Of a stretch of DNA of 64,000 nt, positions 23,985 through 60,637 are shown piece after piece (position 1 is the first letter of the stretch; each line of letters opens with the position of its first letter). Origin of the DNA: Eledone cirrhosa (taxonomy: Eukaryota); the NCBI GenBank assembly GCA_964016885.1, contig OZ024756.1:28086001-28150000 (forward strand). Reading direction: 5' to 3'. The notes under the pieces are model-generated. The model searched no databases, was not told the origin of the DNA, and was given only the letters and a program-made list of their open reading frames with translations. The translations under genes and the position numbers were made by a program.

Positions 23985-26273
23985 TCAAACTATAGGAACA
24001 TGGGGATGAGTTTTTTTATGGGCATTGAGTGGTCCAGATTGGGAAAATGCTTTCGGACACTGATCACATTTATATGGCCGTTCCCCTGAATGTGTTCGTT
24101 TATGAACTCTTAAATTGCTAGAGGTAGTGAAAGCTTTGAAACATATGTCACATGCAAAAGGTTGTTCTCCAGAATGAGTCCGCATATGGACAGTTCTGTT
24201 GCTAGATGTCGAGAATGCTTTTTCGCAGATATCACATTCATAAGGTCTTTCGCCTGAATGAATAGTCATGTGTTCTGTCAGATTTCCTGATGTTGAGAAT
24301 GCTTTAAAACATATTTCACACTTGTATGGCTGCTCCCCAGAATGAACTCTTTTGTGGACTGAAAGATTACTAGAAGTGGAAAAGGTTTTAGAACATGTGT
24401 CACAGCTGTACGGACGTTCGTCTGTGTGTGAACGCATGTGAACAGTCAAATGACTGGAACGGGAAAATGGTTTCTGGCAAACATCACATTGGAAAGGTTT
24501 GTCACCAGTATGTTTCTTCAGGTGACGAGTCAACTCAAAGTATTTAGGGAAAATCTCGTTGCAATAGTCACATTCGAAACTGCGTTCGACGGAATGAATT
24601 TTAAGATGTTCTGAAAGGTAGCGTGCTTGGGAGAAGGCTTTAGGGCAGATATCACACTGGAAATCTCTAAGCTGACCTGAATGAGTTCGCATGTGAACTG
24701 TCCGATTACTTGATGTGGTGAAAGCTTTCGGGCACATTGAACATTTGAATGGATGTTCTCCTGAATGGATTCTCATATGTACTTTACGATTACTAGAGCG
24801 AGAGAAACGCTTATGGCAAATCTCACACTCAAATGGTCTTTCACCAGAATGAGTGGTCAAGTGTTCAGTCAAATTACTTGATGTTGAAAATGCTTTCAAA
24901 CATATCCCACATTTATAGGGTTGCTCCCCTGAATGAACTCTTTTGTGAACCGACAAATTGCTTGAAGTGGAAAACCATTTGTGACATGACTTGCACTCAT
25001 ATGGACCTTTCAGAGAGAATGTAGTTTTCTTAACCATATTCATATGCTGGTTATTTATACAGTCTTTCCCTTGGTTAACATTTTGTTGGATGTTATGACT
25101 GGGAGAAGATTTGATAGTGTTAATGTTTGTTGTACAAGAATCAGAATTGGTTGTCTGAACATGTTCAGAGCAGTTACTCACAGGAGTATGCATGATAGTA
25201 TGCGTGGAAGAAGAATTATGTGAGTTAGTTGATGAAGAAACAGGGTGTGATGTAGGGTTAACAGAACTGTCTAATGAAGATAAACTGCTGCGCTGTTCAC
25301 TTCCATTTGAGCTGAATGTTGCTGTGGTTGTACTGATTGTTGTATTTGTTGTTGTCGTTGGCACTCTCTCTAAACACTTTGAATTAAGAGAGGTATTATT
25401 ATCCTGGTTGCTGACTGGCGGATATAAAAACTGTGCTTTCATCACATCATTGCTACTGATTTTCGGGGAGAGATAATCATGGTGTGGACTTTTTGAAGTT
25501 GCAGTCATTGCTGGAGGTGGCCTAAGCATATGATCAACATTATCGGGGTTAGGAACTACCAAATCTTTTGAGCTCAATAAATCATTAGTTTCACATCCTA
25601 ACAGCATACTGTCTTGGGGTATTATGTTCTTTGAAGATCTGCTCAATTCATGTTCATGGTGGAAAATACCCTTTGACCGGACATAATCACTTTCTTGAGG
25701 ATGCACAGAATTCTTTGTTCTCAACAAGTCAGAACTAAGCATGGATAAATTCTTCAATTTCATGGTTTCATTTGAGTCATGTGGCATGATCCCTTTTAGG
25801 TCCATGAGTTCAGGAGTATTATGGGACACAAATCCTTTCATTCTCATCGATTCATTTAAGTCTTTGTTCAGCTGGTTGCAAGGTCGCTGTATATTGCAGT
25901 TGTCAGGCGAGAATATCATTCCTTTTGGTCTAAAAAAGTCATTCTCATAAGCAGGTATATTCTTATGCCTCGTGTGCTCATTTGTTAAAGTTATCATGCT
26001 CCTTGACTTAAACAATTCATTCTCCTGAGCAGCCATCATGCCTCGAGCACGCTGATAATCATTGTCAGGATTTACTACATTCCTGGGCCTAAACAGGCTG
26101 TCAGGAGGTATCATACCTCGAGATCGAAACCAGTCGCTGTCTAGCGCCATTAAGCTTCTTGATCGGAAGAGGTCGCTTTCAGATGCCATAATTGTTTTGG
26201 GCCTCAGGAAGTCCTCGTCTGTAGACAAAGTACCACAATAAGATTTTAAAAAGCCTTCTTGAGGAGACAACAT
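23985..26273 (-). CDS. C2H2 zinc-finger protein, 762 aa, 12 tandem fingers, single coding exon
   Basis: Twelve C-x2-C-x12-H-x3-H units with SGEQP/SGERP/TGDKP-type linkers. N-terminal repeat region and Ser/Thr-rich linker. In-frame TAA two codons upstream of the ATG. Confidence 0.93.
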   Translation of the reverse strand: MLSPQEGFLKSYCGTLSTDEDFLRPKTIMASESDLFRSRSLMALDSDWFRSRGMIPPDSLFRPRNVVNPDNDYQRARGMMAAQENELFKSRSMITLTNEHTRHKNIPAYENDFFRPKGMIFSPDNCNIQRPCNQLNKDLNESMRMKGFVSHNTPELMDLKGIMPHDSNETMKLKNLSMLSSDLLRTKNSVHPQESDYVRSKGIFHHEHELSRSSKNIIPQDSMLLGCETNDLLSSKDLVVPNPDNVDHMLRPPPAMTATSKSPHHDYLSPKISSNDVMKAQFLYPPVSNQDNNTSLNSKCLERVPTTTTNTTISTTTATFSSNGSEQRSSLSSLDSSVNPTSHPVSSSTNSHNSSSTHTIMHTPVSNCSEHVQTTNSDSCTTNINTIKSSPSHNIQQNVNQGKDCINNQHMNMVKKTTFSLKGPYECKSCHKWFSTSSNLSVHKRVHSGEQPYKCGICLKAFSTSSNLTEHLTTHSGERPFECEICHKRFSRSSNRKVHMRIHSGEHPFKCSMCPKAFTTSSNRTVHMRTHSGQLRDFQCDICPKAFSQARYLSEHLKIHSVERSFECDYCNEIFPKYFELTRHLKKHTGDKPFQCDVCQKPFSRSSHLTVHMRSHTDERPYSCDTCSKTFSTSSNLSVHKRVHSGEQPYKCEICFKAFSTSGNLTEHMTIHSGERPYECDICEKAFSTSSNRTVHMRTHSGEQPFACDICFKAFTTSSNLRVHKRTHSGERPYKCDQCPKAFSQSGPLNAHKKTHPHVPIV

Positions 26274-26585
26274 GAATTAAATTTCCACCAAGACACATTT
26301 ATAACAGTAAGTAAAATTAAACTTTCTTTCTCTCAACTTCTCTCTATTATGTGTGATGTGTGAATGTGTGTATGTATGTACATTAGAGAGTGTGTGTATG
26401 TAGAGAAAGAAATCTATACTGATATTCTGTATAGCCAACAACTTGACCAACAACTGCTTAGAAAAGGAAGAAAATATATCTAAAGACTGAAGTTTTAGAA
26501 CAGTATACGCAACAGTTGAACTATCTATATATATATATATAAATAGGGGAGTGATAAAAGAAATAAAGAAATTGTGTAAGAGAGA

Positions 26586-28490: not shown

Positions 28491-28551
28491 ATATATTTAC
28501 AGTATATTTACAATATTAAATAAATGGAAACTATATCTATAAAACCATATT

Positions 28552-28617
28552 TATTTCATTATATATATTTCAGGGATAACATATTAACAATATGCTATGC
28601 CTTCCTCAGACAAAATA
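28552..28617 (-). ncRNA. Type I hammerhead ribozyme (mirror copy)
   Basis: Reverse complement of 28654-28719. Confidence 0.7.
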
Positions 28618-28653
28618 CAATATAAACAGTTATCTATAAAACTGTTTATATTG

Positions 28654-28719
28654 TATTTTGTCTGAGGAAGGCATAGCATATTGTTAATATGTTATCCCTG
28701 AAATATATATAATGAAATA
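28654..28719 (+). ncRNA. Type I hammerhead ribozyme
   Basis: Stem I UAUUUUGU/AUGAAAUA; core CUGAGGA; long stem II (agg-atagcatatt/aatatgttat-cct); GAAA; palindromic stem III AUAUAUAU; cleavage triplet AUA. Confidence 0.7.
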
Positions 28720-29139
28720 AATATGGTTTTATAGATATAGTTTCCATTTATTTAATATTGCATATATATATATATATATAAATATACATATACATCATCA
28801 TCATCATCGTCGTTTAACGTCCATCTTCCACGCTTGCATGGGTTTGGACGGGAGGTTTCCCACTTGAGGCAAGATTTGTTGTCCTGCTCGTATAAGACTG
28901 TCTGGCAGGTTTTCTACGGCTGGATGCCCTTCCTAACACCAACCACTTACATACATATAAATATACATATACATACAAATATACATATACATATATATAC
29001 ATATACATACATATAAATATACATATATATATAAATATACATATACATACAAATATACATATATATATATATATAAATATACATATACATACAAATATAC
29101 ATATATATATATATATAAATATACATATACATACATATA

Positions 29140-29501
29140 AATAGCAAGTAAGTATGTTTTGAAACAGTGAGCAGCTTTGAAATTAGAAAATATATAGCTT
29201 TCACCGTATTTTTGACTAAAGGAATTTTAGCCTGATAATGGGGTTTAGAACCCTCAGATAAAATGGAAAAAAATGAGTATTGACGTACATGGGAGTCAAA
29301 CCCACATCTTTGGTTATCGCGACCACTGTGCTACCATTACACCAGTGATGTGTTGGTGTAATGGTAGCACAGTGGTCGCGATAACCAAAGATGTGGGTTT
29401 GACTCCCATGTACGTCAATACTCATTTTTTTCCATTTTATCTGAGGGTTCTAAACCCCATTATCAGGCTAAAATTCCTTTAGTCAAATATACGGTGAAAG
29501 C

Positions 29502-35423: not shown

Positions 35424-36032
35424 TAAATGAAATATACATATATATACATATAAATATACATATATATACATATAAATATACATATATAAATATACAAATA
35501 CATACATATAAATATATATATATATACATATAAATATACATATATATATATATAAATATACATATACATACATATATATACATATAAATATACATATATA
35601 TATATATATACATATACATACATATAAATATACATATACATACATATAAATATACATATATATATATATATAAATATACATATATATATATAAATATACA
35701 TACATATAAATATACATATATATATATATATAAATATACATATATATATATAAATATACATATATAAATATACATATATATATATAAATATACATATATA
35801 TATATATAAATATACATATATATATATATAAATATACATATATATATAAATATACATATATATATATATAAATATACATATATATAAATATACATATATA
35901 TATATACATATATATATAAATATACATATATATATATATAAATATACATATATATAAATATACATATATATATATACATATATATATAAATATACATATA
36001 TATATATACATATATATATAAATATACATATA

Positions 36033-36063
<31 letters not shown>

Positions 36064-36100
36064 ATATACATATATATACATATAAATATACATATATATA

Positions 36101-38523
36101 AATATAGACATAGAATATTCGAAAATATTCTGTATGTTTATAATAAACATTTTGAAGACCTAATCGCTATAGAATAGAATACGTCACGTATTACAATTAG
36201 ATTCTCGATAAAAGCAAGGGAAGTAATCTACGCGTTTCATTCTTGTTAGAAATCATCAGGACTACATATCCAGTGCTTTTATCGAGAATGACACAGCTAG
36301 AGACTTATAGAATACTTAGATGTGTACAGGAACTGATTTGAAAGAGCGGTTGCCGGTCCGGCAGAAATTAGAAATTGGAATAAATGCTCTGAAATAGCGA
36401 CATATATGTGAATATAGACATAGAATATTCGAAAATATTCTGTATGTTTATAATAAACATTTTGAAGACCTAATCGCTATAGAATAGAATACGTCACGTA
36501 TTACAATTAGATTCTCGATAAAAGCAAGGGAAGTAATCTACGCGTTTCATTCTTGTTAGAAATCATCAGGACTACATATCCAGTGCTTTTATCGAGAATG
36601 ACACAGCTAGAGACTTATAGAATACTTAGATGTGTACAGGAACTGATTTGAAAGAGCGGTTGCCGGTCCGGCAGAAATTAGAAATTGGAATAAATGCTCT
36701 GAAATAGCGATATATATGTGAATATAGACATAGAATATTCGAAAATATTCTGTATGTTTATAATAAACATTTTGAAGACCTAATCGCTATAGAATAGAAT
36801 ACGTCACGTATTACAATTAGATTCTCGATAAAAGCAAGGGAAGTAATCTACGCGTTTCATTCTTGTTAGAAATCATCAGGACTACATATCCAGTGCTTTT
36901 ATCGAGAATGACACAGCTAGAGACTTATAGAATACTTAGATGTGTACAGGAACTGATTTGAAAGAGCGGTTGCCGGTCCGGCAGAAATTAGAAATTGGAA
37001 TAAATGCTCTGAAATAGCGATATATATGTGAATATAGACATAGAATATTCGAAAATATTCTGTATGTTTATAATAAACATTTTGAAGACCTAATCGCTAT
37101 AGAATAGAATACGTCACGTATTACAATTAGATTCTCGATAAAAGCAAGGGAAGTAATCTACGCGTTTCATTCTTGTTAGAAATCATCAGGGCTACATATC
37201 CAGTGCTTTTATCGAGAATGACACAGCTAGAGACTTATAGAATACTTAGATGTGTACAGGAACTGATTTGAAAGAGCGGTTGCCGGTCCGGCAGAAATTA
37301 GAAATTGGAATAAATGCTCTGAAATAGCGATATATATGTGAATATAGACATAGAATATTCGAAAATATTCTGTATGTTTATAATAAACATTTTGAAGACC
37401 TAATCGCTATAGAATAGAATACGTCACGTATTACAATTAGATTCTCGATAAAAGCAAGGGAAGTAATCTACGCGTTTCATTCTTGTTAGAAATCATCAGG
37501 ACTACATATCCAGTGCTTTTATCGAGAATGACACAGCTAGAGACTTATAGAATACTTAGATGTGTACAGGAACTGATTTGAAAGAGCGGTTGCCGGTCCG
37601 GCAGAAATTAGAAATTGGAATAAATGCTCTGAAATAGCGATATATATGTGAATATAGACATAGAATATTCGAAAATATTCTGTATGTTTATAATAAACAT
37701 TTTGAAGACCTAATCGCTATAGAATAGAATACGTCACGTATTACAATTAGATTCTCGATAAAAGCAAGGGAAGTAATCTACGCGTTTCATTCTTGTTAGA
37801 AATCATCAGGACTACATATCCAGTGCTTTTATCGAGAATGACACAGCTAGAGACTTATAGAATACTTAGATGTGTACAGGAACTGATTTGAAAGAGCGGT
37901 TGCCGGTCCGGCAGAAATTAGAAATTGGAATAAATGCTCTGAAATAGCGATATATATGTGAATATAGACATAGAATATTCGAAAATATTCTGTATGTTTA
38001 TAATAAACATTTTGAAGACCTAATCGCTATAGAATAGAATACGTCACGTATTACAATTAGATTCTCGATAAAAGCAAGGGAAGTAATCTACGCGTTTCAT
38101 TCTTGTTAGAAATCATCAGGACTACATATCCAGTGCTTTTATCGAGAATGACACAGCTAGAGACTTATAGAATACTTAGATGTGTACAGGAACTGATTTG
38201 AAAGAGCGGTTGCCGGTCCGGCAGAAATTAGAAATTGGAATAAATGCTCTGAAATAGCGATATATATGTGAATATAGACATAGAATATTCGAAAATATTC
38301 TGTATGTTTATAATAAACATTTTGAAGACCTAATCGCTATAGAATAGAATACGTCACGTATTACAATTAGATTCTCGATAAAAGCAAGGGAAGTAATCTA
38401 CGCGTTTCATTCTTGTTAGAAATCATCAGGACTACATATCCAGTGCTTTTATCGAGAATGACACAGCTAGAGACTTATAGAATACTTAGATGTGTACAGG
38501 AACTGATTTGAAAGAGCGGTTGC
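36101..38523 (-). mobile_element. 310-bp tandem array, ~7.8 units, one hammerhead per unit (retrozyme-like)
   Basis: Marker gaaaatattc recurs at 36121, 36431, 36741, 37051, 37361, 37671, 37981 and 38291. HHR cores start at 36223+310n. Confidence 0.9.
36223..36265 (-). ncRNA. Minimal type I hammerhead ribozyme (first of 13 copies)
   Basis: GUAGUC-CUGAUGA-uUUCUaacaAGAAu-GAAA-CGCG-UA-GAUUAC, with 6-bp stem I and palindromic stem III ACGCGU. A 16-bp distal helix attctcgataaaagca/tgcttttatcgagaat spans 36201-36289. Confidence 0.85.
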
Positions 38524-38981
38524 ATCGAGAATCTAATTGTAATACGTGACGTATTCTATTCTATAGCGATTAGGTCTTCAAAATGTTTATTATAAACATA
38601 CAGAATATTTTCGAATATTCTATGTCTATATTCACATATATATCGCTATTTCAGAGCATTTATTCCAATTTCTAATTTCTGCCGGACCGGCAACCGCTCT
38701 TTCAAATCAGTTCCTGTACACATCTAAGTATTCTATAAGTCTCTAGCTGTGTCATTCTCGATAAAAGCACTGGATATGTAGTCCTGATGATTTCTAACAA
38801 GAATGAAACGCGTAGATTACTTCCCTTGCTTTTATCGAGAATCTAATTGTAATACGTGACGTATTCTATTCTATAGCGATTAGGTCTTCAAAATGTTTAT
38901 TATAAACATACAGAATATTTTCGAATATTCTATGTCTATATTCACATATATATCGCTATTTCAGAGCATTTATTCCAATTT
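38524..38981 (+). mobile_element. Inverted 1.5-unit continuation of the 310-bp array (HHR at 38778-38820)
   Basis: Exact reverse complement of the unit, joined at ...gagcggttgc|atcgagaat. Confidence 0.9.
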
Positions 38982-39087
38982 ATACATATATATATACATA
39001 TAAATATACATATATATATATAAATATACATATATATATATAAATAAATATACATATAAATATACATAAATATACATATAAATATAC

Positions 39088-39120
<33 letters not shown>

Positions 39121-39304
39121 AATATACATATACATATATATATATATAAATATACATATACATACATATAAATATACATATACATACATATAAATATACA
39201 TATACATAGATATAAATATACAAATACATACATATAAATATACATATACATACATATAAATATACATATACATAGATATAAATAGACAAAATACATACAT
39301 ATAA

Positions 39305-39335
<31 letters not shown>

Positions 39336-39382
39336 AATATACATATATATATATAAATATACATATATATATATAAATATAC

Positions 39383-39413
<31 letters not shown>

Positions 39414-39692
39414 AATATACTTATATATATATATAAATATACATATATATATATATATACATATATATATAAATATACATATACATACATATAAATATAC
39501 ATATATATATATAAATATACATATATATATATACATATATACATATATATATATACATATATATACATATAAATATACATATATACATATATATATACAT
39601 ATGTATACATATAAATATACATATATACATATAAATATACATATATAAATATACAAATACATACATATAAATATATATATATCTACATATAA

Positions 39693-39730
<38 letters not shown>

Positions 39731-40628
39731 ATATACATATATATACATATAAATATACATATATATACATATAAATATACATATATATACATATAAATAT
39801 ACATATATAAATATACAAATACATACATATAAATATATATATATAAATATACAAATACATACATATAAATATATATATATATACAGATAAATATACATAT
39901 ATATATATATATAAATATACAAATACATACATATAAATATATATATATATACAGATAAATATACATATATATATATATATAAATATACATATACATACAT
40001 ATAAATATACATATATATATATAAATATACATATATATATAAATATACATATATATATAAATATACAAATATATATATATATAAATATACATATATAAAT
40101 ATACATATATATATATAAATATACATATATATATATATAAATATACATATATATATATATAAATATACATATATATAAATATACATATATATATATAAAT
40201 ATACATATATATAAATATACATATATATATATACATATATATATAAATATACATATATATATAAATATACATATATATATATACATATATATATAAATAT
40301 ACATATATATATATAAATACATATATATATAAATATACATATATATATATAAATATATATATATAAATATATATATATAAATATATATATATAAATAAAT
40401 ATACATATATATATATAAATATATATATATAAATATATATATATAAATATATATATATAAATAAATATACATATATATATATAAATATATATATATAAAT
40501 ATATATATATAAATAAATATATATATATAAATATATATATATAAATAAATATATATATATAAATAAATATATATAAATAAATATACATAAATAAATATAC
40601 ATATATATATATAAATATATATATAAAT

Positions 40629-41930
40629 AATATAGACATAGAATATTCGAAAATATTCTGTATGTTTATAATAAACATTTTGAAGACCTAATCGCTTTTC
40701 TGCCGGACCGGCAACCGCTCTTTCAAACCAGTTCCTGTACACAGCTAAGTATTCTATAAGTCTCTAGCTGTGTCATTCTCGATAAAAGCACTGGATATGT
40801 AGTCCTGATGATTTCTAACGAGAATGAAACGCGTAGATTACTTCCCTTGCTTTTGTCGAGAATCTAATTGTAATACGTGACGTATTCTATTCTATAGCGA
40901 TTAGGTCTTCAAAATGTTTATTATAAACATACAGAATATTTTCGAATATTCTATGTCTATATTCACATATATATCGCTATTTCAGAGCATTTATTCCAAT
41001 TTCTAATTTCTGCCGGACCGGCAACCGCTCTTTCAAACCAGTTCCTGTACACAGCTAAGTATTCTATAAGTCTCTAGCTGTGTCATTCTCGATAAAAGCA
41101 CTGGATATGTAGTCCTGATGATTTCTAACGAGAATGAAACGCGTAGATTACTTCCCTTGCTTTTGTCGAGAATCTAATTGTAATACGTGACGTATTCTAT
41201 TCTATAGCGATTAGGTCTTCAAAATGTTTATTATAAACATACAGAATATTTTCGAATATTCTATGTCTATATTCACATATATATCGCTATTTCAGAGCAT
41301 TTATTCCAATTTCTAATTTCTGCCGGACCGGCAACCGCTCTTTCAAACCAGTTCCTGTACACAGCTAAGTATTCTATAAGTCTCTAGCTGTGTCATTCTC
41401 GATAAAAGCACTGGATATGTAGTCCTGATGATTTCTAACGAGAATGAAACGCGTAGATTACTTCCCTTGCTTTTGTCGAGAATCTAATTGTAATACGTGA
41501 CGTATTCTATTCTATAGCGATTAGGTCTTCAAAATGTTTATTATAAACATACAGAATATTTTCGAATATTCTATGTCTATATTCACATATATATCGCTAT
41601 TTCAGAGCATTTATTCCAATTTCTAATTTCTGCCGGACCGGCAACCGCTCTTTCAAACCAGTTCCTGTACACAGCTAAGTATTCTATAAGTCTCTAGCTG
41701 TGTCATTCTCGATAAAAGCACTGGATATGTAGTCCTGATGATTTCTAACGAGAATGAAACGCGTAGATTACTTCCCTTGCTTTTGTCGAGAATCTAATTG
41801 TAATACGTGACGTATTCTATTCTATAGCGATTAGGTCTTCAAAATGTTTATTATAAACATACAGAATATTTTCGAATATTCTATGTCTATATTCACATAT
41901 ATATCGCTATTTCAGAGCATTTATTCCAAT
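40629..41930 (+). mobile_element. Second 310-bp array: 68-bp inverted stub plus ~4 units (HHRs at 40799, 41109, 41419, 41729)
   Basis: Same unit with four diagnostic substitutions shared by all four copies. Confidence 0.9.
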
Positions 41931-42056
41931 ATATAAATAAATATATATAAATAAATATACATATATATATATAAATATATATATATAAATATACATATAT
42001 ATAAATATACATATATATAAATATACATATATATAAATATACATATATATATATAC

Positions 42057-42157
<101 letters not shown>

Positions 42158-42168
42158 CATATATATAC

Positions 42169-42199
<31 letters not shown>

Positions 42200-42729
42200 C
42201 ATATATATACATATATATATATACATATATATATATACATATATATATACATATATATATATATACATATATATATACATGGTGGCTGCCAACTCGTTTT
42301 CGAGTACGGCCACTACTTTATATCCATGTAGGAGAACCCCTACTGATGTGCTGAACGAGTGTGACTTTTCAATCCAGCCAGCGACTTGAAAACTCTGGTA
42401 CAAACACTACACCTGTGACAATGATTGACACACAGTGCTGGGCCCATGGTACCATGTGACGACAAGTGCAGAGAGATCTCCAGATATAAAGCAATGCCTG
42501 TGCCGTGAAGCTTTTATAGTGAGCAAAGGCACTGCACAAAGCCAGTCCCACTCTCTTAACCAAGATGATATTTACCAAAAAGAAGAACAAGTCAACATCA
42601 TTGGATACCATCAGGGTTGCAGGTGTTATATCAGAGTTTTCCTTCTCCTAGAATTCTGCCTTGACAAAGGCTAAGGGGTCATCTCTCCCGGTGATACATA
42701 TACATACATATACATACATACATATATAT

Positions 42730-43271: not shown

Positions 43272-46200
43272 ATCATCATCATCATCATCATCACCGTTTT
43301 ACGTCCGTTCTTCCACGCTAGCATGGGTTAGACGGGTTGTCCTGTTGTGGGCAGTGTCTGGTCGGCTGACCATGCCTTGCTCATACAGGAACTGATCTGG
43401 CTTGATTTCTACAGCTGGATGCCCTTCCTAACACCAACCTCATTTACAGTGAGTGCTGGGTGCTTTTTCGTGGCGCCTACACGTCCACTTTACAGTGTGG
43501 GCTGGGTGCTTTTTTGCCGTGGCACCTCCACGACCACCTTGCGGTGGGGGGGGGGGGGGCATATTGTTTATATGCTTCAGCATGTACCCATGGGAGGTCG
43601 GGTACCCTGTATTACTGCGTGACGCCAGAAGTCACGGTCGTGTGTCATTGACTTTGAGAGGTGTAGTTGGGTAAGGTCGGCTTTTATCACCTCATCCCAA
43701 GTCATCTTGGGTCTCCCCACTCCGCGGTTTCCATCAACTTCTAGTGCTCTGCACCTTTTTATGCAGCTGTCATCCTTCATACGCATCACATGTCCATACC
43801 AGCGTAACCGCCTCTCCTGCACGCAGCATTTGATTCCTCTTATGCTCAGTCTCTCTCTCAATTCATTTATGCTTTGTCGTTCACGTATATTACTGTTACA
43901 CATCCATCGGAGCATGCAGGCTTCGTTTCTCTCTAATCTACGTAAGTCTTCCACCTTCAGCGCCCAGGTCTCACTACCATGCAACATCGCTGTTCGGATA
44001 CACGCATCATACAGTCTGCCTTTCATTCTGAGGGAGAAGCCTTTTGCAGCTAGCAGTGGTAGTAGTTCCCTAAACTTCTTCCATCCCGTTCTTACCCTAG
44101 TTATTGTACTTTCTGAGCACCCACCTCCGTTGCTAATTCGGTCACCTAGGTAGCAGAAGCTGTCTACTGTTTCTACAGGGCCCTCCCAGAGATTGGTGGT
44201 ACTTGTTTCCTGTGGCTGTTTGCTTGCTGTTTCAGCACAGCTGCTGCATGTGAATCCTACATTCTTAATTAAGCTTCCTGAGATCCCGCTACATCTCTTG
44301 TGTACCCATTGTTTGCATTTGGGGCAAAGAATGGAGTTCCTACCTACACCTTTCCTACATACTGAGCAAGGCCATTTCCCTGAGGGGATCTGGGTTCTGT
44401 TTTCTCGTCTACTTATAAGGACCTTAGTCTTTGTCATGTTGACTTTGAGGCCCTTTCTCTCTAGTCCCTGCTTCCAGGTTTGGAATTTATTCTCTAGTTC
44501 TACCATAGATTCAGCTATGAGTGCGAGGTCATCAGCATACAGGAGTTCCCATGGGCATCCGGTCTTAAACTCCTCCGTTATTGCCTGCAGGACTATGATG
44601 AACAGGAGAGGGCTAAGAACAGAGCCCTGGTGGACCCCAACCTGTACGCTAAATTCCTCGCTATACTCATTGCCAATCCTAACTTTGCTGACTGCTCCCC
44701 TATACATGGCTTGTACCGCTTTCACAAGCCATTCATCTACTCCTAGTTTTCTAAGAGCCCACCAGATTACTGCACGTGGAACTCTGTCAAAGGCTTTCTC
44801 AAGGTCGACAAATGCCAAGTAGAGTGGCTTACTTTTAGCTAGGTACTTTTCCTGTAATTGCCTCACAAGGAAGAGCGCATCAGTGGTGCCTTTCCCTGGT
44901 ACAAACCCAAATTGCATCTCGTCTATATTCACCCGGTCCCTAATCAGCTGTGCTATAACTCTTTCTGTTACTTTCATGACCTGGTCCATCAACTTTATAC
45001 CTCTATAGTTTCCTCTATCTAGTGCATCGCCTTTACCTTTGTAGCAGTTGACAATGATGCTACTGCACCAATCTTTTGGTATGGCCCCCTCTAGTATTAC
45101 CTGGTTAACGATACGTGTGGTTATAGTGTGACCTACAGACCCAGATGCCTTCAGCATCTCGGCAGCTATACCCGATGGACCGGTTGCCTTCCCTATCTTC
45201 ATATCTCTGATTGCCTTACTTACTACGCTGCCGCTGACTTGTACTGCTGGTCCCTCTATAGGGTCTACGTGGGGTAGGGTCTCTTCTTCCCATGCATTCT
45301 CCTCATTTAGTAATCTATCATAATGACTCTTCCATGCATCTTTCTTCTCAGCACTTGTGAGGGCAAGCTCACCTTTATCATTCCGGATACACTTCTCTCC
45401 AATGACATCACAACTATCTCTGACACACTGCCTCGCAATCTTGAATACCTCCTGTTTCTGGTCCTCACGTTGTAAAACATGCTTGAATTTTCTATCCTCT
45501 GCTTCCCTCCTAGCTAAGTATACTTGTCGCCTAGCTTCCCTCTTGGTCTCTATGTAATGTACCCTGCTCCCCCCGTTCTTCCATTCTTTCCATGCCTGTC
45601 TCTTGGCCTTGACTGCTTCATCTACCTTATTGTTCCACCACCAAGTCACTCTCCTCCTGCTTGAGGTCTTACTCCAGCCACAAACCTCATCCGTCGCCTC
45701 TAGTAAGTTATTTTTTAGGAACTCCCAGTTCTCTTCTACGTTAAATGTCTCTATCTGTTCTTCTTTACTGTCGTAGGCGTTGAGTAAAATATCTTTAAAT
45801 CTGTTACTGGTTGAGGGGACTTTCAGCTTCCAGATCTTTCTTCTCCAGGTTGGCCTCTGTTTCAGGGCTCGTCTAGTTCTGACCGTGAGGTCGCTGACAA
45901 CTAAGCTATGTTGGGATGTACATTCCTCACTAGGGAAGGCTTTTGTGTTTACGACCGTCCATCTGTCACGTCCTCTGATGAGGATAAAATCTAACTGACT
46001 AGAGTGCTCCCCTGATCTATAGGTGATCAGGTGGTTGTCGGGTTTTTTAAAGTTTGTGTTACATATCGACATGTCATTGGCGTCGCAGAATTCTAGAAGT
46101 CTGAATCCTTCCTCATTCCTTGTGCCAACTCCATGGCCTCCATGTACTCTATTGAAGCCGTCGCAGTGTTTACCTACGTGTCCGTTAAAATCTCCTGCAA

Positions 46201-46573
46201 TGATTAGGAAGTCCTTGTCGTCTGTTAGAGCAGTAGTGTGTATTAGGGACTCGTAAAACCTATCCTTAAGTTCGTCTGGCAGCCCCGATTGGGGTGCGTA
46301 AGCTGATATTATTGTGGTAATTGTCTTATTCAGGACTAGTCTGAGTTTAATGATTCTTGCATTTACCCTGTACACTGAGATTACTTTATCTACCCACTTG
46401 TCAGCTAATAGTATACCTACACCACCCATCCCATCGTCATTTCCCACCCAGAAAAATTTGTAGCACTGGCTTTTTCCTACAAGGACTCTAGCAGACCCTC
46501 CTCTCCATCTAGTCTCTTGCACACAGCATACATCAACTTCCTTTCGCTCTAGCATACATCAACTTCCTTTCGC
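43272..46573 (-). mobile_element. Nearly full-length, 5'-truncated RTE LINE (family A) with (ATG)n tail
   Basis: ORF, ~300-bp 3'UTR and tail, flanked by (TA)n-type tracts on both sides. Confidence 0.93.
43577..46555 (-). CDS. LINE ORF: APE endonuclease + reverse transcriptase with an inserted PHD finger (992 aa, N-terminus truncated)
   Basis: [33 protein letters not shown] (APE); [41 protein letters not shown] (RT). No internal stops. Confidence 0.93.
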
Positions 46574-47978: not shown

Positions 47979-48009
47979 GCATACATAAATATATATATAT
48001 ATATTATAT

Positions 48010-48867
48010 AACTTAGTAAAAAATATCTCCCTCCGTATATCTCGCTTGTCCACAAATGAGCAAATCTTCAATGAACACACGCCATATTACAACCAGGCCC
48101 TCAAAAGAAGCGGCTTTCGGGAGGACATTTCATATTATCCTTCTAGTGGACCCAGCTGGCGACGCCCCTGCTCATGCCACGTAACGTGGTTCAACCCTCG
48201 CCACAGTGCCGAGGTTGCAACACCAATTGGGAAGATCTTTTTCAGACTTCTCGATAAACACTTCCAACCCCAACACTGCTACCACAATATCACCAACAGA
48301 AACACTGTTAAACTTTCCTACAGCACTACACCCAACTTTGCACAAAACATTGTTTCATCTAACAACAAAAAACTCCTCTCTAACAGAAAAAACAACAATG
48401 ATATTAGTGGAGAGCAAACTAGGAGGTGTAACTGTCCGGATAGATCATCGTGCCTCCTCAACAATAGATGCCGAGAACGAAACGTGGTCTACCAGTGCAA
48501 CATGAGGACAGAAAACTCCAACAAGGCCTACATTGGATTAACCACCTGTGAATTTAAGACCCTATATTACCAACACCACCATACATTTAGAAACCCGGCC
48601 CAGCAACACACGAGAGCGCTTTCTGGACATATTTGGGACCTCCAAGACAACAATATTACCTACCATCCAAGTCAGAGCATACTTTCCAAGGCAAAATTTT
48701 ACTCGGGAGGACGCCGTCCAAGCAATTTATGCTCGGAAGAAACGATCCAGATGCTGTTTGCAAAGGAACAACTCTTAAACAAAAAGGATGAACTTGTTAC
48801 CTCATGTAAACACAGAATACATAGAACTTACCTTACCTTCAAACCCCCTCACGACGCAGGTGGGTAG
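48010..48867 (+). pseudogene. Penelope-like RT thumb, Cys-rich linker and GIY-YIG endonuclease fragment
   Basis: RISRLSTNEQIF, TWFNP, NRNTVKLSYS, CNCPDRSSCLLNNRC, VVYQ...YIGLT, NLCSEE...LLNKKDELVTSCKH. No start or RT core; the position of the catalytic Arg appears altered (FKTLY). Confidence 0.85.
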
Positions 48868-58409: not shown

Positions 58410-60205
58410 TATACCAATATCCCTCTGATATACCAATCGAAACTGACATACCAATCGAAAATGACATTCTAATCGAAACTGATATACCAATAGAAATTGA
58501 TATACCAATAGAAACTGATATACCAATCGAAACTGATATAACAATCGAAACTGATATACCAATCGAAACTGATATACCAATAGAATCTGACATACCAATC
58601 GAAACTGACATACCAATAGAAACTGATATACTAATCGAAAATGACATCCCAATCGAAACTGATATACCAATCGAAACTGATATACCAATAGAAGCTGACA
58701 TACTAATCAAAACTGATATACCAATCGAAATTGACATACCAGTCGAAACTGACATACCAATCCAAACTGACATACCAATCCAAACTGATATACCAATCGA
58801 AACTGTCATACCAATCGAAACTGATATACCAATAAAAACTGACATACTAATTGAAACTGATATACCAATCAAAACTTATATACCAATAGAAAGTGACATA
58901 CCAATAGAAACTGACATACTAATTGAAACTGATATACCAATCAAAACTGATATACCAATAGAAACTGACATACCAATCGAAACTGATATACCAATCAAAA
59001 CTGATATACTAATAGAAACATACATACGAAAAGAAACTGACATACCAATAGAAATTGACATACCAATAGAAACTGATATACCTATCGAAACTGACATACC
59101 AATAGAAACTGGTATACCAATAGAAGCTGACATACCAATCGAAACTGATATACCAATAAAAACTGACATACCTATCGAAACTGACATACCAATAGAAACT
59201 GATATACCAATAGAAAGTGACATACCAATCATAACTGATATACCAATCGAAACTGACATACATATCGAAACTGAGATAACAATAGTAACTGATATAATAA
59301 TCGAAACTGACATAGCTATCGAAACTGATATACCAATAGAAACTGACATACCAATAGAAACTGACATACCAATCGAAATTGAAATACCAATAGCAACTGA
59401 CATAGCAATCGAAACTGATATACCAATAGAAACTGACATACTAATTGAAACTGATATAGCAATCAAAACTGATATACCAATAGAAACTGACATACCAATA
59501 GAAATTGACATACTAGTCGAAACTGATATACCAATCGAAACTGATATACCAATAGAAACTGACATACTAATTGAAACTGATATACCAATCGAAACTGATA
59601 TACCAATGGAAACTGACATACCAATCGAAACTGATATACCAATCAAAACTGATATATTAATAGAAACATACATACCAATAGAAACTGACATACCAATAGA
59701 AATTGACATACTAATCGAAACTGACATACCAATCGAAACTGGTATACCAATAGAAACTGACAAACCAATAGAAACTGACCTACCAATGGAAACTGATATA
59801 CCAATAGCAACTGAAATACCAATCGAAACTGACATACCAATAGAAACTGATATACCAATCAAAACTGATATACGAATAGAAACTGACATACCTACAGAAA
59901 CTGATATACTAATCGAAACTGACATATAAATCGAAACTGACATACCAACAGAAACTGATATAGCAATAGAAACTGATATACCAATCAAAACTGACATACC
60001 AATCGAAACTGATATACCTATCGAAACTGATATACCAATCGAAACTGACATACCAATCGAAACTGACATTCTAATCGAAACTGATATACCTATCAAAACT
60101 GACATACCAATAGAAACTGATATACTAATCGAAAATGACATACAAATCGAAACTGATATACCAATCGAAACTGATATACCAATAGAAGCTGACATACTAA
60201 TCAAA
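58410..60205. repeat. 18-bp minisatellite, ~100 units, consensus AAT(C/A)GAAACTGA(C/T)ATACC
   Basis: Seen directly in the sequence. Confidence 0.95.
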
Positions 60206-60449
60206 CGTACATATACGTACATATACATATATATATACATATATATATACATATACGTACATATACATATATATATACATATATATATACATATACGTAC
60301 ATATACATATATATATACATATACGTACATATACATATATATATACATATATACATGTATATATACATATATATATACATATACGTACATATACATATAT
60401 ATATATACATATACATATACATATATATACATATACATATATATACATA

Positions 60450-60637
60450 CAACGAAGGAAATGTGGTAAGGAACCAGGTGGATCATAACGCACCAAAGTA
60501 CTCAATACTTAGAGTGTAGAGTGGGTAATAGGAACGAGTAGGACCCCGACGGCTGAGCTCAAGCCGTTTTTTTTTTTAGTCCAGAATTAGCCAGCGAAAC
60601 GGCTTGAGCTCAGCCGTCGGGGTCCTACTTGTTCCTA
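60450..60637 (-). mobile_element. Penelope-like pLTR fragment with an inverted stub that preserves hammerhead stem III and GUC
   Basis: Homologous to 49640-49752. The inverted stub reads GAAACGGCTtgagctcAGCCGTC-GGGGTCC at 60596-60625. Confidence 0.65.

Follow-up and report, generated by a model that had tools for sequence, protein, structure and literature searches.

Two head-to-head arrays of a hammerhead-bearing 310-nt repeat in Eledone cirrhosa, with nearly fixed outer ends that point to Penelope-type insertion

Introduction

Metazoan non-LTR retrozymes have been described as tandem, non-coding units of 150–450 bp with low GC content and a type I hammerhead ribozyme (Cervera and de la Pena 2020, PMC7229834; reviewed in PMC7761336), and it has been proposed in this literature that multimeric cDNA is made from a circular RNA and that Penelope-like elements act as helpers. 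Vertebrate retrozymes have since been reported to derive from the terminal repeats of Penelope elements and to use Penelope enzymes (Li, Clavereau and Pollet 2026, bioRxiv 10.64898/2026.07.22.740005), the evidence in the accessible parts of that preprint being co-occurrence and phylogeny. As the accessible parts of these sources make clear, publications already exist on retrozymes as such, on the proposal that they are copied from circles and on their connection with Penelope elements (PMC7229834, PMC7761336, bioRxiv 10.64898/2026.07.22.740005).

The Penelope-like elements that bear an endonuclease often carry an inverted, 5'-truncated copy, mostly in head-to-head orientation, together with a tail of 30–40 bp at one end (PMC8557442, PMC3846280). 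Within this class, Hydra elements possess hammerheads and have (TA)n targets, and non-autonomous Chlamys elements in head-to-tail arrangement are also mentioned (PMC8557442). The enzyme of Poseidon_Ac, a Penelope-like element of Anolis, acts on both strands of AT-rich DNA, which it cuts and then extends; its two internal start sites in vitro bound the tail and lie downstream of the hammerhead, and initiation there proceeds without target homology (Frangieh et al. 2024, PMC11167929). In the passages of these papers that were available, both the route by which animal retrozymes integrate and the cause of the Penelope inverted copies with their 30–40 bp tail are open questions.

Here we describe two arrays of a retrozyme-like repeat in a 64,000-nt stretch of the Eledone cirrhosa genome (contig OZ024756.1, positions 28,086,001 to 28,150,000; hereafter 'the window', to which all coordinates refer). 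In the accessible literature, no account was found of retrozyme arrays that combine two arms, fixed ends and a tail. In the accessible text of the vertebrate study, for instance, the words 'tail' and 'junction' occur zero times and 'inverted' is present in one reference only (bioRxiv 10.64898/2026.07.22.740005), while the available parts of the two metazoan retrozyme papers contain no description of inverted arms, fixed ends or a tail (PMC7229834, PMC7761336).

Results and Discussion

The repeat unit and its predicted ribozyme

The two arrays, both of which are located inside an AT microsatellite, are built from a repeat unit of 310 nt. Positions in this unit are numbered from U1, the first base 3' of the predicted hammerhead cleavage site (window position 40836). 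The unit is devoid of coding capacity, its longest Met-started frame spanning 30 aa even when the unit is read as a circle, and it has a GC content of 0.35 and no A(A/T)TAAA signal. Its RNA is predicted to fold with −68.6 kcal/mol (z = −3.0), and none of 100 shuffled sequences was as stable.

Each unit harbours a minimal type I hammerhead, exemplified by the copy at 40799–40841 on the plus strand, for which cleavage is predicted to occur after 40835. This motif comprises a 6-bp stem I, the conserved core, a 4-bp stem II resting on a U-U mismatch and a weak stem III that consists of one pair closed by a palindromic CGCG loop. A one-pair stem III with a palindromic tetraloop is likewise present in the axolotl ribozyme HHR_Amex1, which is dimer-dependent (PMC7229834), and co-folding of two copies in the present case likewise produced a 6-bp duplex. 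A motif scan was passed by 12 of the 13 hammerhead copies, the thirteenth, in array 1, having a stem I mismatch at 37191. Rfam returned no hammerhead at gathering level, yielding only a weak match to HH9 (19.2 bits, E 0.24), for which the gathering score is 52. Rfam matches to microRNAs were dismissed as microsatellite noise. The unit also contains a GC-rich hairpin, U176–188 (40701–40713, plus strand), which lies directly 3' of the tail defined below and which is largely kept in a diverged relative.

The unit falls within the limits of non-LTR retrozymes, i.e., tandem units of approximately 150–450 bp, a GC content below 50% and a type I hammerhead in each unit, and lacks the open frame for a reverse transcriptase and a GIY-YIG endonuclease that characterizes autonomous Penelope-like elements. 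By its sequence features the repeat is a non-LTR retrozyme, with self-cleavage and a circular RNA being predicted, whereas the circles of metazoan retrozymes have been shown by experiment (PMC7229834).

Two head-to-head arms with nearly fixed outer ends

Array 1 is composed of a left arm of 7.82 units (36101–38523, minus strand in ribozyme sense), with its outer end at U128 (range U122–128) and its inner end at U186, and a right arm of 1.48 units (38524–38981, plus strand), which starts internally at U20 and has its outer end at U167 (range U166–167). The left arm of array 2 is a stretch of 68 nt, or 0.22 unit (40629–40696, minus strand), between an outer end at U128 (range U126–128) and an inner end at U61, and is followed by a right arm of 3.98 identical units (40697–41930, plus strand) that begins at U172 and has its outer end at U165 (range U162–165). 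The arms are arranged head-to-head with their 3' ends pointing outward in both arrays, each of which possesses an inverted, 5'-truncated head-to-head copy. The right arm extends beyond the end point of the left arm by a tail of 39 nt in array 1 (38943–38981, plus strand, U129–167) and of 37 nt in array 2 (41894–41930, plus strand, U129–165). The terminal bases of the arrays also match the flanking microsatellite, which blurs the ends by 2–6 nt and gives tail lengths of 38–45 nt and 34–39 nt, respectively, when this ambiguity is included.

All four array flanks represent an AT-rich target. The microsatellite, to which no strand is assigned, covers 35430–36100 to the left of array 1 and 38982–40628 between the two arrays, and continues to the right of array 2 over 41931–42281, where it shows a local repeat variant in common with 40332–40628. 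A target-site duplication is unreadable in such a repeat: blunt, deleted and duplicated readings are all compatible with array 1, and several readings of its rejoined empty site recur elsewhere in the window (the best, a blunt one, in 82 copies). For array 2, none of 12 readings of the rejoined site was found elsewhere in the window.

An earlier note on this stretch had given coordinates for both arrays, all of which proved correct, and had observed that the right arm outruns the left by 37–39 nt and that the inversion points differ (38523/4 and 40696/7); both observations were verified, the latter by inner junctions at U186/U20 in array 1 versus U61/U172 in array 2. Its statement that the arrays share their outer ends also stands, with U128 on the left in both and U167 or U165 on the right, although 'the same base' applies only to within approximately 6 nt. 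In a simulation, the chance of two random insertions sharing both outer ends this closely was 0.003, and fell to 0.0003 when an offset of 30–45 nt was also required, values that assume uniform ends and are to be read with the first site (U128) adjoining the unit's own AT run.

The inner junctions, in turn, are blunt, with a distance of 166 and 111 nt, in unit coordinates, between their two sides, and neither of the two exhibits microhomology in register; at junction 1, 4 matching nt precede a gap of 4 nt, which may be due to chance. The two long arms terminate within or next to the hairpin U176–188 (at U186 and U172), a pattern seen in two arms and noticed post hoc.

This layout resembles that of Penelope-like elements of the Hydra, Neptune and Naiad types in its head-to-head inverted copy, its tail of 30–40 bp and its (TA)n targets, and differs from it in that the present arrays are without an open frame, that both arms are multimers of one unit and that the junctions are non-palindromic (PMC8557442, PMC3846280). 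Poseidon_Ac similarly has two start sites that bound the tail, cleavage of both strands and an AT-rich target, but is autonomous and linear, and its double priming is not linked to inverted copies in the accessible parts of the study (PMC11167929). The proposal of the earlier note that the ends tie the arrays to Penelope machinery is accordingly upheld, as layout, tail and AT target all match the available descriptions of Penelope-like elements (PMC8557442, PMC3846280, PMC11167929). Its suggestion of microhomology priming fits the left end of array 1, where 13 of 15 bases match in register, but not the left end of array 2, with at most two such bases; the Poseidon_Ac enzyme, the one Penelope enzyme examined in vitro, initiates without homology (PMC11167929). 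The outer ends point to Penelope machinery, and they are compatible with a later expansion of the tandem units at the DNA level.

At the sequence level, DNA comparison of the unit with the local Penelope-type remnant described below detected no homology. Similarly, no sequence link to a named Penelope-like family was found in the passages and the searched part of the supplement of PMC8557442, and the 11-nt hairpin motif had 0 matches on either strand in that part of the supplement.

Two independent insertions

Four sites, i.e., U20, U203, U219 and U295, differ in every unit between the two arrays. The letters of array 1 are identical across both of its arms (10/10 at U20 and 9/9 at each of U203, U219 and U295), as are those of array 2 (4/4 at each site). 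These letters were compared with those in X1, a public sequencing run that may derive from another individual or species than the source of the window: at U20 the letter of array 1 accounts for 424,635 of a depth of 428,585 and that of array 2 for approximately 1%, while at U203, U219 and U295 none of the letters of array 1 is listed at 1% or more and no difference from array 2 is listed. Each array is thus fixed for variants that are rare in X1, from which it follows that neither array descends from the other, and such fixation of rare variants per array is as expected if one template served each insertion.

The flanks are in agreement with this conclusion. No bases are shared at the junctions by the flanks of arrays 1 and 2, and the 12-mer cosine at 60 nt is 0.75 and 0.84 within arrays versus 0.29 and 0.49 between like flanks, a contrast that is evident at the 60-nt scale and weakens at 150 nt. 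Furthermore, a local variant of the microsatellite repeat clusters to the left and right of array 2. Segmental duplication, which the earlier note had named as its own refuting case, fails on the four fixed differences per unit and on the differing flanks, and is unlikely as the origin of the two arrays.

Long-read chimeras can produce inverted repeats, and the arrays are situated 1.6 kb apart in one microsatellite field, points that favour a group of explanations made up of segmental duplication, an inversion after insertion, fold-back self-priming and an assembly artefact. Beyond the fixed differences and the absence of shared junction bases, this group of explanations is confronted with the unlike inversion points of the two arrays and with outer ends that random inversions would not repeat, and as a whole it is very improbable. 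Self-priming has been proposed for the palindromic junctions of Penelope elements (PMC3846280); it was rejected here on account of the asymmetry of the junctions (166 and 111 nt).

The internal sequence of the arrays bears on another possibility, in which a short Penelope-type insertion, i.e., an inverted arm plus tail, came first and its units multiplied later by unequal crossover or slippage in DNA. A model of this kind was proposed for vertebrate retrozymes in a study that leans to local expansion at the DNA level (bioRxiv 10.64898/2026.07.22.740005), whereas the present arrays speak rather for multimers that formed during insertion. Later expansion leaves the outer ends and the inner junction fixed, as is seen here, and the long microsatellites in which the arrays lie are unstable. 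However, private changes number 2 in the 2881 nt of array 1 and 0 in the 1302 nt of array 2, and both of those in array 1 are confined to single units rather than spread in blocks, which argues weakly (n = 2) against expansion; in addition, the arrays appear too recent for it to have recurred many times, and each arm would have required more than one unit at the start. We consider this course of events improbable.

Ends at other loci

To place these ends in a wider context, public sequencing runs were searched with 32 sampled unit words, at least half of which were found in 20 of 24 listed runs, these 20 belonging to 17 studies and including no listed RNA run; contigs were compared for seven of the 20. 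Runs X1 and X2, which represent one sample, yielded 583 and 290 matching contigs. Among the 30 partly matching contigs of X1, at least nine end after U139, an apparent end that in simulation collects true ends at U128–139 (from U100–111 on with lax scoring) and that may also come from units with a longer AT run, and at least one ends after U170, which collects true ends at approximately U161–170. Among the 23 partly matching contigs of X2, at least seven end after U139, at least two after U167 and at least one after U170, these counts being lower bounds from the loose ends listed (6 of 23 for X1 and 6 of 17 for X2). In this sample, contigs leave the unit mostly within the two zones in which the arrays have their outer ends (at least 10 of 30 and at least 10 of 23). 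The contig ends after U139 and U170 continue into AT repeat, while the listed 5' ends on AT repeat vary (U30, U101 and U150). As these 5' ends directly abut AT repeat, one-armed copies exist. No strand-changing joints are listed for the seven runs, although short contigs might fail to reveal them. Of the loose ends listed for X1 and X2, three represent indel variants of the unit and a further one (before U123) resembles a sister family.

A diverged, one-armed monomer of this sister family is present in the window at 61030–61335 (plus strand) and has a type I hammerhead of its own. It is identical to the unit at 200 of 282 aligned bases (71%), and its alignment scores 152, whereas 200 shuffles reached at most 47; its 3' end falls in the U128–139 zone, in AT microsatellite, and it has no second arm.

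Two contigs of run X2 leave the unit after U167 (window position 41002) with an A-rich consensus (agreement 0.61), which may reflect either a poly(A) tail or a flank rich in A. They have a bearing on an inversion by a LINE-type enzyme through ordinary twin priming, a process that makes 5' inversions in L1 (PMC9148063) and for which the window does contain a long endonuclease-reverse transcriptase frame at 43577–46558. L1, however, starts at its poly(A) tail and at a variable internal site, whereas neither of the two arrays has a poly(A) end and the internal site is fixed in both; the missing A(A/T)TAAA signal of the unit also tells against such an origin, which is hardly probable at all.

In other runs the unit was encountered without flanks. 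Runs X3, X4, X10 and X14 gave a single 340-nt contig that closes on itself, with neither flanks nor variants, and X16 a single unit piece of 280 nt. These contigs span different coded organism labels and studies, carry no junction information, and may stem from arrays present at low coverage in relatives, from carry-over out of a highly abundant library or from a free circle. In raw-read run X24, from the same study as X3, 0 of 12.8 million reads match, which counts as no test.

Proposed mechanism and nature of the template

We hold with moderate confidence that the two arrays arose by separate insertions of a hammerhead-bearing, non-coding repeat, that each consists of two arms placed head-to-head with outer ends at two almost fixed points 37–39 nt apart, and that each was likely made by a borrowed Penelope-type enzyme priming from both cut ends of the AT microsatellite on one, probably circular, RNA. 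The unit, its ribozyme motif, the arrangement of the arms, their end positions, the array-specific variants common to both arms and the independence of the target sites are observed, and the steps that would connect them are proposed. In such a scheme, tandem transcripts would self-cleave, probably as dimers, and ligation would turn the monomers into circles. Binding near the tail, a Penelope-type protein would make a cut in each strand of the AT repeat, upon which one DNA end would prime at approximately U128 and the other at approximately U165–167. Each reverse transcriptase may then run a variable number of rounds, generating arms of 0.2 to 7.8 units, and a blunt joining of the two cDNA ends would result in a variable inversion point.

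The arms cross 8, 1 and 4 predicted cleavage sites, indicating that the template was either circular or an uncleaved multimer. The latter possibility, in which double priming occurs at the same two fixed sites but the template is an uncleaved, linear multimer transcribed from a young and homogeneous donor array, explains the ends, the tail and the shared variants equally well. Insertion in vitro occurs without need of ribozyme cleavage, and RNA ends at the cleavage site were not observed in the anole study, according to its accessible parts (PMC11167929); the weakness of stem III is also consistent with a linear template, and the left-arm start of array 2 at U128 lies 43 nt upstream of the right-arm stop at U172, as linear twin priming would give. 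Conversely, a linear template requires transcripts of at least eight uncleaved units, even though tandem copies favour dimeric cleavage (PMC7229834), and the gap of approximately 200 nt in register in array 1 is unfit for a single-pass geometry. The rare variants in all units would, moreover, demand a homogeneous donor each time, and their fixation per array is most simply explained by an RNA circle. On balance, and with two full loci as the basis, a linear multimer appears rather unlikely as the template.

Insertion from a circular RNA may be taken one step further, albeit tentatively. The arrays may record germ-line rolling-circle reverse transcription, in which a Penelope-type dimer would cleave both strands and initiate two cDNAs, each from its own fixed site on one 310-nt RNA circle; each cDNA would be extended for up to eight rounds, with a tendency to end at the hairpin next to the start sites. 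If true, the Penelope tail and the inverted copy would be products of one event, and the arrays would reveal how genomes acquire copies of RNA circles. Young arrays whose outer ends are fixed yield exact start sites (U128 and U165–167), a target type and a 310-nt substrate, so that both the integration of animal retrozymes and the origin of the Penelope inverted copies with their tail become testable in vitro and by tabulating loci.

Other features of the window

Several further elements were observed in the window. A decayed, C-terminal remnant of a Penelope-type open frame is present at 47989–48867 (plus strand); its motifs resemble, by eye, those in the available Hydra-clade alignments of PMC8557442, and it has no Pfam match and four unnamed homologues with 37–48% identity. 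The LINE-type element at 43577–46558 (minus strand) has an open frame of 993 aa with endonuclease, reverse transcriptase and PHD-finger domains, and several fragments of its relatives occur elsewhere in the window. At 23985–26276 (minus strand), a frame of 763 aa encodes approximately 12 C2H2 zinc fingers and is likely a host gene exon.

A near-perfect fold-back palindrome is located at 28503–28768, with 129-nt arms, an 8-nt loop and 3 mismatches; its right arm runs into AT repeat, hammerhead-like core words are found on each arm, and it is possibly another head-to-head retroelement family. A short inverted repeat with 42-nt arms (60528–60638) marks the end of a dispersed repeat with flanking AT microsatellite. 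An 18-bp repeat in approximately 99 copies extends over 58425–60206, where both strands have open frames, and adjoins a LINE fragment. Finally, a tRNA-like match at 29347–29417 (plus strand; 38.6 bits) is possibly the head of a SINE.
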